Shown: positions 1 to 4,003, counted from the stretch's first letter. The stretch: 4,003 nucleotides of DNA from a virus (IMGVR_UViG_2695420687_000009:1-4003), one strand, 5' to 3'. The notes: generated by a model from the letters alone, not told the origin. Program-made: numbers and translations.

Positions 1-113
1 TAACGGCTCTGTTTCAGCGCCTGTTCAGCTTTGCTACGAATCTTACTCAACTCTTCTTTTGACTTCTCGCCTGAGGCGCTTAGCACCTCTTCCAGCGTAT
101 CGGACAGGGATTT
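1..113 (-). pseudogene. yqjD: Internal fragment of a YqjD-like (ElaB/YqjD/YgaM family) membrane-anchored ribosome-binding protein; both ends missing
   Basis: Reverse-complement translation [39 protein letters not shown] matches my recollection of E. coli YqjD (roughly residues 15-55). There is no start or stop codon; the fragment runs off the window at position 1 and abuts the proC fragment near 113. Confidence 0.6.
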
Positions 114-242
114 CACAGGCCTATAAATTTGCAGCTCAGGCCGTAATGGGGTCCGCGAAAATGGTACTGGAAACCGGAGAACATCCCGGCGCATTGAAAG
201 ATATGGTCTGCTCACCGGGAGGCACCACCATTGAAGCAGTGC
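114..242 (+). pseudogene. proC: Internal fragment of pyrroline-5-carboxylate reductase (C-terminal region), no start or stop
   Basis: Translation [42 protein letters not shown] matches the C-terminal region of E. coli ProC as I recall it. The expected continuation (RVLEEKGF...) is absent; the sequence switches to phage Z at the NN at 243-244. Confidence 0.7.
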
Positions 243-694
243 NNGTTGCCCGTGAGACAAAGGTACGTCGGAAACTGGTAAAGGAAAGGGCCAGGCTGAA
301 AAGGGCCACGGTCAAAAATCCGCAGGCCAGAATCAAGGTTAACCGGGGGGATTTGCCCGTAATCAGGCTGGGTAATGCGCGGGTTGTCCTGTCCCGCCGC
401 AGGCGTCGTAAAAAGGGGCAGCGTTCATCCCTGAAAGGTGGCGGCAGCGTGCTTGTGGTGGGAAACCGTCGTATTTCCGGCGCGTTTATTCAGCAACTGA
501 AAAATGGCCGGTGGCATGTCATGCAGCGTGTGGCCGGGAAAAACCGTTACCCCATTGATGTGGTGAAAATCCCGATGGCGGTGCCACTGACCACGGCGTT
601 TAAACAGAATATTGAGCGGATACGGCGTGAGCGTCTTCCGAAAGAGCTGGGCTATGCGCTGCAGCATCAACTGAGAATGGTAATAAAGCGATGA
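243..694 (+). CDS. Z: Lambda-like minor tail protein Z, 5'-truncated (about 43 N-terminal codons and the start codon absent)
   Basis: Translation VARETKVRRKLVKERARLKRATVKNPQARIKVNRGDLPVI...[15 protein letters not shown] matches lambda gpZ from about residue 44 to its C-terminus. The stop TGA at 692-694 overlaps the U start (ATGA), as in lambda. The in-frame sequence upstream is proC, not Z. Confidence 0.85.
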
Positions 695-1086
695 AACATA
701 CTGAACTCCGTGCAGCCGTACTGGATGCACTGGAGAAGCATGACACCGGGGCGACGCTTTTTGATGGTCGCCCCGCTGTTTTTGATGAGGCGGATTTTCC
801 GGCAATTGCCGTTTATCTCACCGGCGCTGAATACACGGGCGAAGAGCTGGACAGCGATACCTGGCAGGCGGAGCTGCATATTGAAGTTTTCCTGCCTGCT
901 CAGGTGCCGGATTCAGAGCTGGATTCGTGGATGGAGTCCCGGATTTATCCGGTGATGAGCGATATCCCGGCACTGTCAGATTTGATCACCAGTATGGTGG
1001 CCAGTGGCTATGACTACCGGCGCGACGATGATGCGGGCCTGTGGAGTTCAGCCGATCTGACTTATGTCATTACCTATGAAATGTGA
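691..1086 (+). CDS. U: Lambda-like tail terminator / minor tail protein U (131 aa, intact)
   Basis: Full-length [36 protein letters not shown]...[10 protein letters not shown] matches lambda gpU. The ATG overlaps the Z stop codon (translational coupling arrangement). Confidence 0.9.
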
Positions 1087-1093
1087 GGACGCT

Positions 1094-1834
1094 ATGCCTG
1101 TACCAAATCCAACAATGCCGGTGAAAGGTGCCGGGACCACACTGTGGGTTTATAAGGGGAGCGGTGACCCTTATGCGAACCCGCTTTCAGACGTTGACTG
1201 GTTGCGTCTGGCAAAAGTTAAAGACCTGACGCCCGGCGAACTGACCGCTGAGTCCTATGACGACAGCTATCTCGATGATGAAGATGCAGACTGGACTGCG
1301 ACCGGGCAGGGGCAGAAATCTGCCGGAGATACCAGCTTCACGCTGGCGTGGATGCCCGGAGAGCAGGGGCAGCAGGCGCTGCTGGCGTGGTTTAATGAAG
1401 GTGATACGCGTGCCTATAAAATCCGCTTCCCGAACGGCACGGTCGATGTGTTCCGTGGCTGGGTCAGCAGTATCGGTAAGGCGGTGACGGCGAAGGAAGT
1501 GATCACCCGCACGGTGAAGGTCACCAATGTGGGACGCCCGTCGATGGCTGAAGATCGCAGTACGGTGACGGCGGCAACCGGCATGACGGTAACGCCAGCC
1601 AGTGCGTCCGTAGTGAAAGGGCAGAGCACCACGCTGACCGTGGCATTCCAGCCGGAAGGCGTAACCGACAAGAGCTTTCGTGCGGTGTCTGCGGATAAAA
1701 CAAAAGCCACCGTGTCGGTCAGTGGTATGACCATCACCGTGAACGGCGTTGCTGCAGGCAAGGTCAACATTCCGGTTGTATCCGGTAATGGTGAGTTTGC
1801 TGCGGTTGCAGAAATCACCGTCACCGCCAGCTAA
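1094..1834 (+). CDS. V: Lambda-like major tail tube protein V with C-terminal Ig-like (Big_2-type) domain (246 aa, intact)
   Basis: [36 protein letters not shown]...[14 protein letters not shown] matches lambda gpV, with a few substitutions relative to my memory of lambda. AGGA at 1086-1089 lies just upstream of the ATG at 1094. The ORF-track start at 1064 is an upstream in-frame ATG that overlaps U and is not supported by homology. Confidence 0.9.
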
Positions 1835-1849
1835 TCCGGAGAGTCAGCG

Positions 1850-2281
1850 ATGTTCCTGAAAACCGAATCATTTGAACATAACGGCGTGACCGTCACGCTT
1901 TCTGAACTGTCAGCCCTGCAGCGTATTGAGCATCTTGCCTGGTTGAAAGAGCAGGAAAAAAAGGCTGAATCCAGTGGCAACCTGCAGGTGTCTGTAGAGG
2001 ATCTTATCAGAGGCGGGGCGTTTCTGGTGGCGATGTCCCTGTGGCATAACCATCCGCAGAAAACGGGGTCACCGTCAATGAATGAGGCTGTGATGCAGAT
2101 TGAGCAGGAAGTCCTGACCACCTGGCCTGCTGATGCCATTGCCCGGGCGGAAGATGTGGTGTTGCGTCTGTCCGGGATGAGCGGGCTTGTTCATGTGGAT
2201 ACGGATATTACCGAAGTGGCGAAAAATAACGCGCTGACTGATGATGATTTTTCTGCGGGAAAGTCTTCGACGGCGAGCTGA
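1850..2281 (+). CDS. G: Lambda-like tail assembly chaperone G (143 aa, zero-frame product)
   Basis: MFLKTESFEHNGVTVTLSELSALQRIEHLAWLKEQ...FLVAMSLWHNHPQKT...SAGKSSTAS resembles lambda gpG (N-terminus identical, middle and C-terminal parts diverged). RBS GGAGAG at 1838-1843 is 6 nt upstream of the ATG. The slippery heptamer sits 7 codons before the stop. Confidence 0.88.
   Translation: MFLKTESFEHNGVTVTLSELSALQRIEHLAWLKEQEKKAESSGNLQVSVEDLIRGGAFLVAMSLWHNHPQKTGSPSMNEAVMQIEQEVLTTWPADAIARAEDVVLRLSGMSGLVHVDTDITEVAKNNALTDDDFSAGKSSTAS
2257..2263 (+). promoter_or_regulatory. Programmed -1 ribosomal frameshift slippery heptamer G GGA AAG (G-T frameshift site)
   Basis: GGGAAAG is present with GGA and AAG in the G zero frame (codons 2258-2260 and 2261-2263), which is the heptamer and phasing known for lambda G-T. 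The downstream -1 frame stays open for 154 codons and encodes T-like sequence. Confidence 0.8.
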
Positions 2282-2721
2282 ATTTTGCCCTCAGACTGGC
2301 GCGTGAGATGGGGAGGCCTGACTGGCGCGCCATGCTTGCCGGGATGACATCCACCGAATATGCCGACTGGCGACATTTTTACCGCATGCATTATTTTCAC
2401 GATACCCAGCTGGATATGCATTTTTCCGGGCTGACGTACGCTGTACTCAGCCTGTTTTTTTGCGATCCGGATATGCATCCCTCTGATTTCAGTCTGCTTG
2501 TCCCCCGGCATGAGGAAGAGCAGGTGGAGAGGCCGGATGAGGACAAAATGCTGATGCAGAAAGCGGCAGGACTTGCCGGAGGCGTCCGGTTCGGTGGGGA
2601 CGGAGGGCGCGATATTTTATCGTCTGCGGATGTGGCGGATGTCATGGTGGATGATGCCGCATTAATGGTGGCTTCAGCGGGGATTTCCGGAGGTGTGAGA
2701 TATGTCCCAGCCGGTTGGTGA
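2257..2721 (+). CDS. T: Lambda-like tail assembly protein T portion, expected to be made only as a G-T fusion by -1 ribosomal frameshift (fusion ORF 1850..2257 then 2257..2721)
   Basis: Reading in the -1 frame from the slippery site gives GKVFDGELNFALRLAREMGRPDWRAMLAGMTSTEYADWRHFY...GISGGVRYVPAGW, which matches lambda gpT. There is no independent RBS or start for this frame; the ORF-track start at 2308 is just the first in-frame ATG. Stop TGA at 2719-2721. Confidence 0.85.
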   Translation, partial: GKVFDGELNFALRLAREMGRPDWRAMLAGMTSTEYADWRHFYRMHYFHDTQLDMHFSGLTYAVLSLFFCDPDMHPSDFSLLVPRHEEEQVERPDEDKMLMQKAAGLAGGVRFGGDGGRDILSSADVADVMVDDAALMVASAGISGGVRYVPAGW

Positions 2722-2788
2722 TCTTGTTATTGACCTTAGTCTGGATGCGGTCCGTTTCGATGAGCAGATGAGCCGGGTAAGGCGTCAT
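2702..2788 (+). pseudogene. H: Lambda-like tail tape measure protein H, N-terminal 29 codons only (gene cut off at the N at 2789)
   Basis: MSQPVGDLVIDLSLDAVRFDEQMSRVRRH matches the start of lambda gpH (MAEPVGDLVVDLSLDAARFDEQMARVRRH...). RBS GGAGG at 2689-2693 is 8 nt upstream of the ATG at 2702, which overlaps the T stop. After 2788 the sequence is the nuoM start on the opposite strand, so about 97% of H is absent. Confidence 0.75.
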
Positions 2789-2789
2789 N

Positions 2790-2894
2790 TTTCACCAGCG
2801 CTATCCAGCGCGGCACCTTGACGCCAAAGCGTTCGGTCTGCCAGCACAGGAAGCCGCCGATAAAGGGAATCAATATTAGCCAGGGTAGTAACAT
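2790..2894 (-). pseudogene. nuoM: 5' fragment of NADH-quinone oxidoreductase subunit M (start codon plus about 34 codons)
   Basis: Reverse-complement ATG at 2894..2892 followed by MLLPWLILIPFIGGFLCWQTERFGVKVPRWIAL, which matches the N-terminus of E. coli NuoM as I recall it. AAGGA lies upstream on the minus strand (plus coordinates about 2902-2906). The 2895-2942 stretch is presumed nuoL-nuoM junction sequence but I could not confirm it. Confidence 0.65.
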
Positions 2895-2942
2895 GGCGAT
2901 CTTTATTCCTTGTAAAAGTCCCGTCAGGACCGGATTTTCAAC

Positions 2943-3440
2943 GAATTCTCAGACGCGCTGGCAAAAGTGATGCCGTCTGACATCCCGCTTAAACACCGTC
3001 ACTGGCTGGGCCTACAAATGCTGGAAGGCGATATTTACAGCCGTGCCTATGCCGGTGAAGCGTCGCAGCACCTGGATGCCGCCCTCGCCCGTCTGCGTAA
3101 TGAAATGGACGATCCGGCATTGCACATTGCTGATGCCCGCTACCAGTGCATTGCAGCTATCTGTGATGTGGTAAGCAACACTCTGACGGCAGAACCCAGC
3201 CGTTTTACTACCGCGGTGGATAAAATCGTGCTTAACCGTTTCCTCGGTCTGCCGATTTTCCTGTTCGTCATGTACCTGATGTTCCTGCTTGCCATCAACA
3301 TCGGCGGAGCATTACAGCCACTGTTTGATGTCGGTTCTGTGGCGCTGTTTGTACATGGTATTCAGTGGATTGGCTACACACTCCACTTCCCGGACTGGCT
3401 GACTATCTTCCTCGCCCAGGGGCTTGGCGGCGGTATTAAC
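2943..3440 (+). pseudogene. feoB: Internal fragment of ferrous iron transporter FeoB (no start or stop; about 165 codons, end of the G-domain linker region into the first transmembrane segments)
   Basis: Translation ...LAKVMPSDIPLKHRHWLGLQMLEGDIYSRAYAGEASQHLDAALARLRNEMDDPALHIADARYQCIAAICDVVSNTLTAEPSRFTTAVDKIVLNRFLGLPIFLFVMYLMFLLAINIGGALQPLFDVGSVALFVHGIQWIGYTLHFPDWLTIFLAQGLGGGIN matches E. coli FeoB. The 5' boundary is uncertain by about 10-20 bp. The 3' end stops at the N cluster beginning at 3441. Confidence 0.8.
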
Positions 3441-3664
3441 NNNGTNCNNCNTTNGTTCCTTTCAGGATGAACGTGTAATTGCCCGGCGTATTGTTTTTCA
3501 TCAGACGAAACGCGACGTTATCGACAAACGAATAGGTCGAAAGCTCAGAAAGATCGCGACACATCAGAGTAAAGTTGTGACCGTCCGGCAGCTGACGAAT
3601 ACGACAAATGCGCTCCATTGCGTTTTTATCTTCAATTTTACAACCGAGCGCATAGCCGGAATCG
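3441..3664 (-). pseudogene. yciO: Internal fragment of YciO (YrdC/Sua5-fold, L-threonylcarbamoyladenylate synthase-like paralog), no start or stop
   Basis: Reverse-complement translation YPTDSGYALGCKIEDKNAMERICRIRQLPDGHNFTLMCRDLSELSTYSFVDNVAFRLMKNNTPGNYTFILKG matches E. coli YciO, roughly residues 32-104. The visible bases between the Ns at 3442-3456 remain compatible with the next YciO residues T-K-E-V-P. The match ends upstream at about 3664. Confidence 0.7.
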
Positions 3665-3925
3665 GTTGGATATCGCATGGGTTGCCGCCTCACGGGCTGA
3701 TGTGCTGGCATCGCCGGCTGACTTCTTCGCGGCTGCCGTGTTCTGTGCCACCGCAGACGCGTTACGCGCCACCTCTTCCACCATCAGTTCAAAACGGCGC
3801 AGTGCCTCAGGACGGGCAATGATAAACAGAATCATGGCAATGAGCGGACCACTTATCGCGTAAATCATTGAAATAGCATTCGGGTTGATACAGCAGATGA
3901 TAAAGGTAATCAGCGATACCAACAT
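3665..3925 (-). pseudogene. 5' portion of a lambda Stf-like side tail fibre gene (conserved N-proximal motif), truncated downstream at the yciO junction
   Basis: Minus-strand ORF starting at ATG 3925..3923 encodes ...ARPEALRRFELMVEEVARNASAVAQNTAAAKKSAGDASTSAREAATHA, which closely resembles the lambda Stf segment ARPEVLRRLELMVEEVARNASVVAQSTADAKKSAGDASASAAQ. The 36 residues before it (MLVSLITFIICCINPNAISMIYAISGPLIAMILFII) are hydrophobic and unlike lambda Stf. The reading frame runs into yciO-derived sequence and stops at 3638. Confidence 0.5.
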
Positions 3926-4003
3926 AATGGATAGTGCGCGGTTAAATGACCGGCTTTTTTTAATCCCTACCTGTTGTAATGTTGTTTTGACAACTTCAGT
4001 TGC

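Follow-up and report, generated by a model that had tools for sequence, protein, structure and literature searches.

A 4-kb contig joining Escherichia gene fragments to a lambda-like tail module exists as sequence but is an artefact rather than a biological structure

The question raised by this locus is whether a stretch of DNA in which pieces of distant genes abut one another represents a biological structure or an error of sequencing or assembly. The window, by which we mean the whole analyzed stretch of 4,003 nt, is identical, including its ambiguous bases (N's), to the entire contig CDRK01001346.1 of NCBI assembly GCA_000936005.1. It consists of eight gene pieces separated by seven junctions. 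Six are short fragments of core genes, one is a piece of a tail-fibre gene, and the remaining one is a lambdoid prophage block of 2.55 kb; they are randomly oriented and range from 115 to 2,550 nt in size. The features along the window are as follows.

1-115, minus strand: internal fragment of yqjD (about codons 14-52 of 101), running off the contig start
116-244, plus strand: internal fragment of proC (about codons 199-240 of 269), 92% identical to proC
245-694, plus strand: Z', the minor tail protein Z gene without its first 43 codons, colinear with Z in natural prophages
691-1086, plus strand: U (tail terminator), intact, 131 aa, Pfam PF06141
1094-1834, plus strand: V (major tail protein with a C-terminal Big_2 domain), intact, 246 aa, Pfam PF16461/PF02368
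1850-2281, plus strand: G (tail assembly chaperone), intact, 143 aa, rare allele, PF06894
2308-2721, plus strand: T reading frame, predicted to be expressed as G-T by a -1 frameshift, PF06223
2702-2794, plus strand: H', the first 31 codons of the tape-measure gene, followed by a break
2795-2951, minus strand: 5' end of nuoM, comprising the first 33 codons and 57 nt of upstream intergenic DNA, 98.7% identical to nuoM
2952-3440, plus strand: internal fragment of feoB (profile positions 186-348 of 772), NCBIfam NF007105, E = 5.7e-88
3441-3455, no strand: overlay zone NNNGTNCNNCNTTNG, in which the feoB and yciO continuations are superimposed as a consensus
3456-3672, minus strand: internal fragment of yciO (profile positions 26-96 of 202), TIGR00057, E = 4.6e-28
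3673-3818, minus strand: internal fragment of the prophage side tail fibre gene Stf (about codons 97-145 of 1,023), 100% identical to E. coli prophage tail-fibre genes
3819-4003, minus strand: internal fragment of yqeG (amino-acid permease; about codons 312-372 of 409), TIGR00814, E = 5.8e-13, running off the contig end

The seven junctions, J1 to J7, were located exactly at 115/116, 242-246 (an overlay with NN at 243-244), 2794/2795, 2951/2952, 3440-3455 (an overlay with eight N's), 3672/3673 and 3818/3819. An earlier note on this DNA had likewise counted seven junctions in 4 kb, and all the gene fragments that it named were present on the strand given there, with boundaries within 2-9 nt and E-values from 4e-38 to 0. 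Its last segment, 3665-4003, was indeed Stf-like at 3673-3818, but a separate yqeG fragment (3819-4003) had been merged with Stf, and its remark that most fragments lack both start and stop does not extend to nuoM, whose start codon is present at 2894 on the minus strand. The joined ends share no nucleotide at J1, J6 and J7 and only 1-2 nt at J3 and J4, with imperfect overlays of 5 nt at J2 and 15 nt at J5, and the partners are distant loci in each case. The left-hand piece was observed to end in CA at four of the seven window junctions, as well as at 2-3 of the 4 further junctions in a sister contig described below, while the right-hand pieces show no matching TG at the join.

Each of the eight pieces aligns colinearly with a distant locus of its own. 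The window matched in at least four separate places in every one of 5,426 complete E. coli genomes, in line with the earlier claim that the source genes are widely separated on the chromosome, and none of these genomes covered at least 80% of the window or carried the pieces together; yqjD and nuoM, for example, are about 960 kb apart in the NZ_AP018784.2 chromosome.

The core-gene pieces had previously been attributed to E. coli. An origin from E. coli K-12 was ruled out by identities to E. coli of 84-93%. For feoB, identity reaches 98.6% with the type strain of Escherichia albertii (NBRC 107761), against 88-91% with other members of the genus (about 91% with E. coli). This match shows E. albertii to be the donor of the feoB piece, and the other core-gene pieces probably came from the same donor. 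The yqjD piece is 93% identical to yqjD in 5,423 of the 5,426 E. coli genomes, the yciO piece is 91-93% identical to yciO (with only 14 E. coli genomes matched by megablast), and the yqeG piece is 84% identical to E. coli yqeG. Most mismatches are at codon position 3 (7 of 8 in yqjD, 9 of 10 in proC, 37 of 40 in feoB against E. coli and 26 of 29 in yqeG), giving 95 of 104 substitutions (91%) at third positions against E. coli overall, with almost no amino-acid changes: one in 37 residues of yqjD, and none in 41 of proC, 33 of nuoM or 73 of yciO. This third-position bias ruled out random noise or a mutated decoy and, together with the match of feoB to E. albertii, indicates that the pieces are undecayed copies of working genes and hence that the joining was very recent.

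The sole functional biology in the window is an ordinary lambda-like tail-gene block (245-2794, plus strand), in which U, V, G and G-T are intact, and Z and H are truncated because of the joins. Its identity as a lambdoid tail module was confirmed by the gene order Z-U-V-G-T-H and, in a natural copy, by the families PF06763, PF06141, PF16461, PF06894, PF06223 and PF06791. The exact U protein is very widespread (17,640 blocks of the collection in the index, with 43 contigs read), and among the 10 matches listed it occurred in Z-U-V-G-T-H order wherever neighbours were called. V is 96-100% identical at the DNA level to E. coli prophages. The G/T slippery heptamer, GGGAAAG, lies at 2257-2263 near the end of G, and a simulated -1 shift there produced one open G-T fusion ending at 2721. 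The exact T protein was found in 19 contigs, and a tape-measure ORF followed T in every listed natural contig that extended past T, with 859 aa where the contig was long enough. The exact G protein was found in only three contigs of the collection, the window, the sister contig and contig L099 of the Logan assembly of run ERR738819, and since the allele is limited to these three, they probably derive from the same strain or study.

Contig L099 provides an independent assembly of the phage, identical to the phage block at all 2,549 called bases. The Z' piece matches it with 100% identity from L099 position 4396, whereas the natural Z starts at 4267, and the window leaves it after position 6945, inside an H gene that encodes 859 aa in L099. 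L099 runs unbroken and without branching through both phage breakpoints of the window, as well as through the point equivalent to window 1187 where the sister contig departs, and has full-length Z and H, so that the phage junctions are absent from this assembly, which continues as intact phage on both sides. A break within the block at 1187 was rejected, the window being colinear with natural prophages there, and the drop in identity at about 2045 reflects ordinary lambdoid allele mosaicism, the natural L099 carrying the same sequence.

The sister contig, CCBU01001292.1 of GCA_000940615.1 (IMG/VR UViG_2695420564_000007), shares the five right-hand junctions with the window, and both contigs stop at the same base; both are numbered above 1,290, which marks the drafts as very fragmented. 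The sister contig differs from the window in the placement of N's, in a feoB piece shortened by 2 nt where it meets yciO and in its left-hand partners. After departing from the phage at window 1187 it has further junctions of its own, and it includes a small MobQ plasmid fragment at 99.9%. A fixed physical junction should read alike in both contigs, and these differences therefore count toward a software origin. The earlier note had held that a reference genome with the fragments truly adjacent would speak against an artefact; the sister contig is such a sequence in a formal sense only, but it is itself an N-joined patchwork and does not rescue a biological reading. In junction searches J7 was present only in the sister contig, J1 was not found in 185,579 species-representative genomes or IMG/VR, and J6 was not found in JGI metagenomes. 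A literature search returned no papers on the contig accessions or the run ID.

The N's of the window are confined to junctions. In the overlay at 3441-3455, each of the eight N's marks a mismatch between the feoB and yciO continuations, and six of the seven called bases fall where both agree (Fisher p = 0.0014). Both N's at 243-244, within the 5-nt overlay C-NN-GT that ends the proC piece, are at conflicts between proC (GC) and phage Z (AG), and so are both N's of the sister contig at the equivalent of window 2795-2796; the N at window 2789, judged against the E. coli nuoM reference, shows no parent conflict. The overlay is one-sided at the join, as expected of two superposed contig ends. Apart from the N at 2789, the ambiguous bases reflect both superimposed parent sequences.

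Signatures of mobile elements were absent from the window, consistent with the earlier statement that no such mechanism could be recognized. No repeat pair, target-site duplication or other duplication brackets any junction, no transposase or integrase was found, and every ORF of at least 60 aa is a phage tail gene, a gene fragment, an antisense frame or a junction-spanning frame. A transposon, insertion sequence or integrative element was rejected on the lack of terminal inverted repeats, target-site duplications and transposase or integrase. Remnants of restriction sites, adaptors or linkers were absent from the junctions (one chance 10-mer lies within natural U sequence), and the window gave no Rfam matches.

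Taken together, the results support a patchwork that exists as sequence but is a biological artefact, produced by an error in sequencing or assembly; nothing in it works as a unit. The chimeric assembly proposed in the earlier note accords with a whole small draft contig, N's that match superimposed parents, an intact independent assembly of the phage and the lack of a mobile-element signature. Among the possible errors, we lean towards a contig mis-joined by the assembly pipeline from pieces of an E. albertii-like genome, and we infer that the joins were made by software rather than in the test tube. Small, independently assembled pieces would have been strung together, most likely at scaffolding or gap-closing, by placing contig ends adjacent or overlapping; overlaid ends would give a consensus N at disagreeing bases, and ends with an estimated gap of zero would simply abut. 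Against software, the junctions at 115/116, 2951/2952, 3672/3673 and 3818/3819 are free of N's and read alike in two assemblies deposited separately, whose contigs also end at the same base; unless both assemblies used the same reads, these shared features suit a physical chimeric molecule equally well. Also against software are the read-pair links between distant loci that a scaffolder would need, and the CA bias of the left-hand ends, both of which a software origin would have to account for. A physical chimeric molecule could be a laboratory product, still an artefact, in which fragments were ligated or template-switched during whole-genome amplification or library preparation, amplified and then faithfully assembled. 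We regard this as possible, although probably not what happened. The blunt joins with 0-2 shared nt at J1, J3, J4, J6 and J7, the random orientation and wide size range of the pieces, and the five junctions and contig end identical in two assemblies all fit it, N's near the joins could come from natural-locus reads competing with chimeric reads in the consensus, and the one-sidedness of the CA bias suggests that joining was directional, for example through template switching by a growing strand. Adaptor or linker remnants are missing, however, the 2-nt offset at feoB/yciO is unlike one fixed junction, and the unbranched Logan assembly at the phage breakpoints implies that junction k-mers were absent or rare there, if it came from the same sample. 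Chimeras of multiple-displacement amplification usually show overlaps of 2-21 nt and inverted nearby segments, and the overlaps of 0-2 nt at five joins, imperfect overlays at the other two and distant partners seen here may count against that particular route.

A mosaic formed in the cell, by illegitimate end-joining of chromosomal, prophage and plasmid fragments in an E. albertii strain and inherited by two related isolates, would account for the five recurring junctions and the plasmid fragment of the sister contig, but is very improbable given N's that encode both parents at the joins, assemblies that differ in junction detail and left-hand partners, an identical phage that is intact in an independent assembly, fragments without decay, the lack of recombination or mobile-element signatures, and the failure to find J1 among the species-representative genomes and J6 in the JGI metagenomes. 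Efficient end-joining is not known from E. coli and its relatives, which also argues against it, and no process is known that chains seven joins of 115-500-nt gene pieces. Only a slim chance is left that the source strain or its culture truly contained the mosaic as DNA, for instance as a multi-fragment end-joining product that took up chromosomal, prophage and small-plasmid pieces and whose heterogeneity in the population gave slightly different consensuses in the two assemblies; were it real, the recurring CA at the left-piece 3' ends would hint at a directional joining or copying enzyme. The earlier note had also entertained a deliberately shuffled or synthetic construct, and seven junctions in 4 kb do look designed. 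We give a synthetic or decoy origin almost no credence, as the window exactly matches a public GenBank/ENA contig, N's included, a sister sharing five junctions is deposited in another assembly in NCBI and IMG/VR, and the pieces show natural E. albertii-type synonymous divergence.

The value of the mis-joined contig is that of a data-quality warning only. The sister contig is catalogued as a viral genome in IMG/VR even though fragments of host genes and a plasmid make up about two-fifths of it, and such contigs can be mistaken for host genes carried by phage, transduction events, newly evolved protein fusions or mobile elements of a new kind. The long junction-spanning ORFs, which include a 211-aa ORF at 59-694 and a yqeG-Stf-yciO ORF at 3638-4003, are artefacts, as had been suspected, and should stay out of protein catalogues as real proteins. 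An exact look-up of a 95-aa junction ORF gave no record, and its 121-aa version occurred only in the two chimeric contigs and was absent from the protein cluster collection. As a screening rule, N's that coincide with homology switches between loci, in small contigs of highly fragmented drafts, should flag mis-joins.

Compared with known systems, the block at 245-2794 resembles the tail module Z-U-V-G-T-H of lambda-like prophages in gene order, Pfam families and the G/T -1 frameshift heptamer, and over Z-U-V its identity to E. coli prophages is 96-100%. From the C-terminus of G through T to the start of H it carries a rarer allele, with 65-83% identity to the common ones. The block differs from the natural module, complete in L099, in that Z lacks 43 codons and H ends after 31. 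Specialized transducing phages and gyrase-mediated illegitimate recombination likewise join phage and host DNA with little or no homology, but their products carry one contiguous host segment beside the attachment site in a packageable genome, whereas in the window the host DNA consists of very small internal pieces from six scattered genes, and essential tail genes are cut. In-vitro chimeras, such as those of multiple displacement and random-ligation concatemers, are similar in their distant loci, mixed orientation, reproducibility once amplified and blunt or near-blunt joins, but no sign of amplification or ligation chemistry was seen, overlaps of 0-2 nt with non-neighbouring partners are not classic for multiple displacement, and the junction sequence varies between the two assemblies. 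Compared with the usual mis-joined contigs of fragmented short-read drafts, the window is unusually dense, packing seven joins into 4 kb with pieces down to 115-146 nt, and five joins recur in a second assembly; it shares with them abutting loci, N's at joins, a small high-numbered contig and, for the phage block, joins missing from an independent assembly.

The window was found to consist of eight pieces when it and each of its segments were searched against 5,426 complete E. coli genomes and phages and then locally aligned to fetched reference loci:

1-115, minus strand, internal part of yqjD, 93% identity to E. coli
116-244, plus strand, internal part of proC, 92% identity to E. coli
245-2794, plus strand, lambdoid phage genes Z'-U-V-G-T-H' (Z and H cut), compared with natural lambdoid prophages
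2795-2951, minus strand, first 33 codons of nuoM with 57 nt upstream, 98.7% identity to E. coli
2952-3440, plus strand, internal part of feoB, 92% identity to E. coli
3456-3672, minus strand, internal part of yciO, 91-93% identity to E. coli (megablast, in only 14 genomes)
3673-3818, minus strand, internal part of the side tail fibre gene Stf, 100% identity to E. coli
3819-4003, minus strand, internal part of yqeG, 84% identity to E. coli

None of the 5,426 genomes held 80% or more of the window at one place, and in every one of them the matches were scattered over at least four places. The gene fragments listed in the earlier note were correctly named, with boundaries off by a few bases in the segment searches and local alignments, and what it took for a single last segment is really two, Stf (3673-3818) and yqeG (3819-4003). 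All lines concur that the arrangement of the window is not that of a natural genome.

Both parent sequences were aligned through each of the seven junctions (J1-J7). J1 (115|116), J6 (3672|3673) and J7 (3818|3819) are blunt, with zero bases in common between the parents, and the parents share 1 nt at J3 (2794|2795) and 2 nt at J4 (2951|2952). The remaining two are overlays, in which the sequence reads as a consensus of both parents. J2 is a 5-nt overlay, C-NN-GT, with both N's where proC (GC) differs from phage Z (AG). J5 is a 15-nt overlay, NNNGTNCNNCNTTNG, for which feoB was continued from E. albertii and yciO from a sister contig; all eight of its N's fall where the two conflict, and six of its seven called bases where they match (p = 0.0014, Fisher exact test). 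It starts after the last pure feoB base and has no counterpart on the feoB side, which gives it the look of two sequence ends superimposed. Altogether, the 11 N's in the 4,003 bases (243-244, 2789 and eight within 3441-3454) all lie near homology switch points. Every window junction was free of repeat pairs, duplications, IS ends, integrases, adaptors and linkers; Rfam gave zero matches in the window.

An exact-protein look-up found the phage G protein in only three contigs of the whole collection. CDRK01001346.1 (GCA_000936005.1; 4,003 nt) is identical to the window, N's included, and the window is therefore an entire small contig of a draft broken into over 1,300 contigs. The sister contig is CCBU01001292.1 (GCA_000940615.1; 5,255 nt), and the third is an 11.8 kb Logan contig from run ERR738819. 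Literature searches by accession for these three and their assemblies found nothing. The sister contig is filed in IMG/VR as a viral genome, UViG_2695420564_000007, of whose 5.3 kb the phage makes up about 1.6 kb of tail genes and a 146-nt tail-fibre fragment.

The final 2,815 nt of the sister contig match window positions 1187-4003, including five junctions, and all differences between the two sit at joins. The window N at 2789 is T in the sister, the window CC at 2795-2796 is NN (conflict positions of phage H and nuoM), and at the feoB/yciO join the sister has clean yciO sequence and feoB shorter by 2 nt. Such differences within an otherwise identical stretch conflict with one fixed physical junction, which should read identically in both assemblies. 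Both contigs end at the same base inside yqeG (window 4003, sister 5255), which suggests that the two deposited assemblies have reads, library or pipeline in common. Leftward, the sister leaves the phage at window 1187, beside an N, where the window is natural, and continues into a second patchwork:

1-115, creD fragment
113-309, edd/eda fragment, with NNN before the plasmid piece
313-2132, 1.8 kb of a 5,093-bp small MobQ plasmid, 99.9% identity, with an N after it
within 1-2440, composite plasmid-related stretch of about 300 nt adjoining the phage part, including bits of a plasmid 3'-5' exonuclease gene

Four of the window junctions, J1, J3, J4 and J7 (115, 2794, 2951, 3818), have CA as the last two bases of the piece on the left, and so do two additional sister junctions out of four (309, 2439), or arguably three (113-115). 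Over both contigs the total is 6, or arguably 7, of 11 junctions, and the piece on the right starts with TG at none of them. For 6 of 11, a naive binomial test puts p at about 3e-5, or about 1e-3 when corrected for 32 dinucleotide-and-side patterns, for a pattern noticed post hoc. Being one-sided, the bias favours a mechanism with a direction, either an algorithm that walks along a contig or template switching by a polymerase, and counts against symmetric breakage and ligation.

The N's at joins, the variable junction detail and the unbroken phage in the Logan contig support the chimeric assembly proposed in the earlier note; its alternative, a deliberately shuffled or synthetic construct, is ruled out, since a public contig matches the window exactly. 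Among artefact routes we consider it somewhat more probable than otherwise that tiny contigs were mis-joined by software at a scaffolding or gap-closing step, because of the overlay N's, the placeholders of one to three N's, the junction offsets varying between assemblies, and the Logan contig crossing all three phage breakpoints unbranched. A physical in-vitro concatemer is a serious rival, though we consider it the less probable; it would fit the contig end and the four joins free of N's that recur in both deposited assemblies, which may or may not have reads in common. A real in-cell mosaic appears very improbable, as each specific test came out against it. The mosaic is not real biology; in practice it is of use as a warning that public databases of genomes and viruses contain chimeric contigs.

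The pieces themselves are natural, recent copies out of an E. albertii-like genome. Third codon positions hold 95 of the 104 mismatches between the six core-gene pieces and E. coli, and the encoded peptides are nearly unaltered, which rules out both random noise and long decay since fragmentation. Among feoB loci from species-representative genomes, that of Escherichia albertii NBRC 107761 matches the feoB fragment at 98.6% identity, versus 88-91% for E. coli, E. ruysiae, E. whittamii and others; the other core pieces, being similarly divergent, probably share this source. The yciO piece had a megablast-level match in just 14 of the 5,426 E. coli genomes, and the other core pieces matched nearly all; recombination between species may have given these 14 strains an E. 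albertii-like allele of the yciO/trp region.

The phage block at 245-2794 is ordinary and colinear with natural lambdoid prophages. Z-U-V show 96-100% identity to these. From the end of G through T to the start of H (in 1850-2794) the block has a rarer allele, 65-83% identical to those of common E. coli prophages, and the collection has the exact T protein in 19 contigs. The slippery heptamer of lambda G/T, GGGAAAG, lies intact at 2257-2263, and a simulated -1 shift gave an open G-T product, a predicted frameshift. The Logan contig equals the block at every called base and has complete Z (192 aa) and H (859 aa), with phage running on for kilobases on either side. In the listed natural contigs extending past the same T allele, a tape-measure ORF comes next, with its full 859 aa if the contig reaches that far; the window and its sister have a 39-codon stub in its place.
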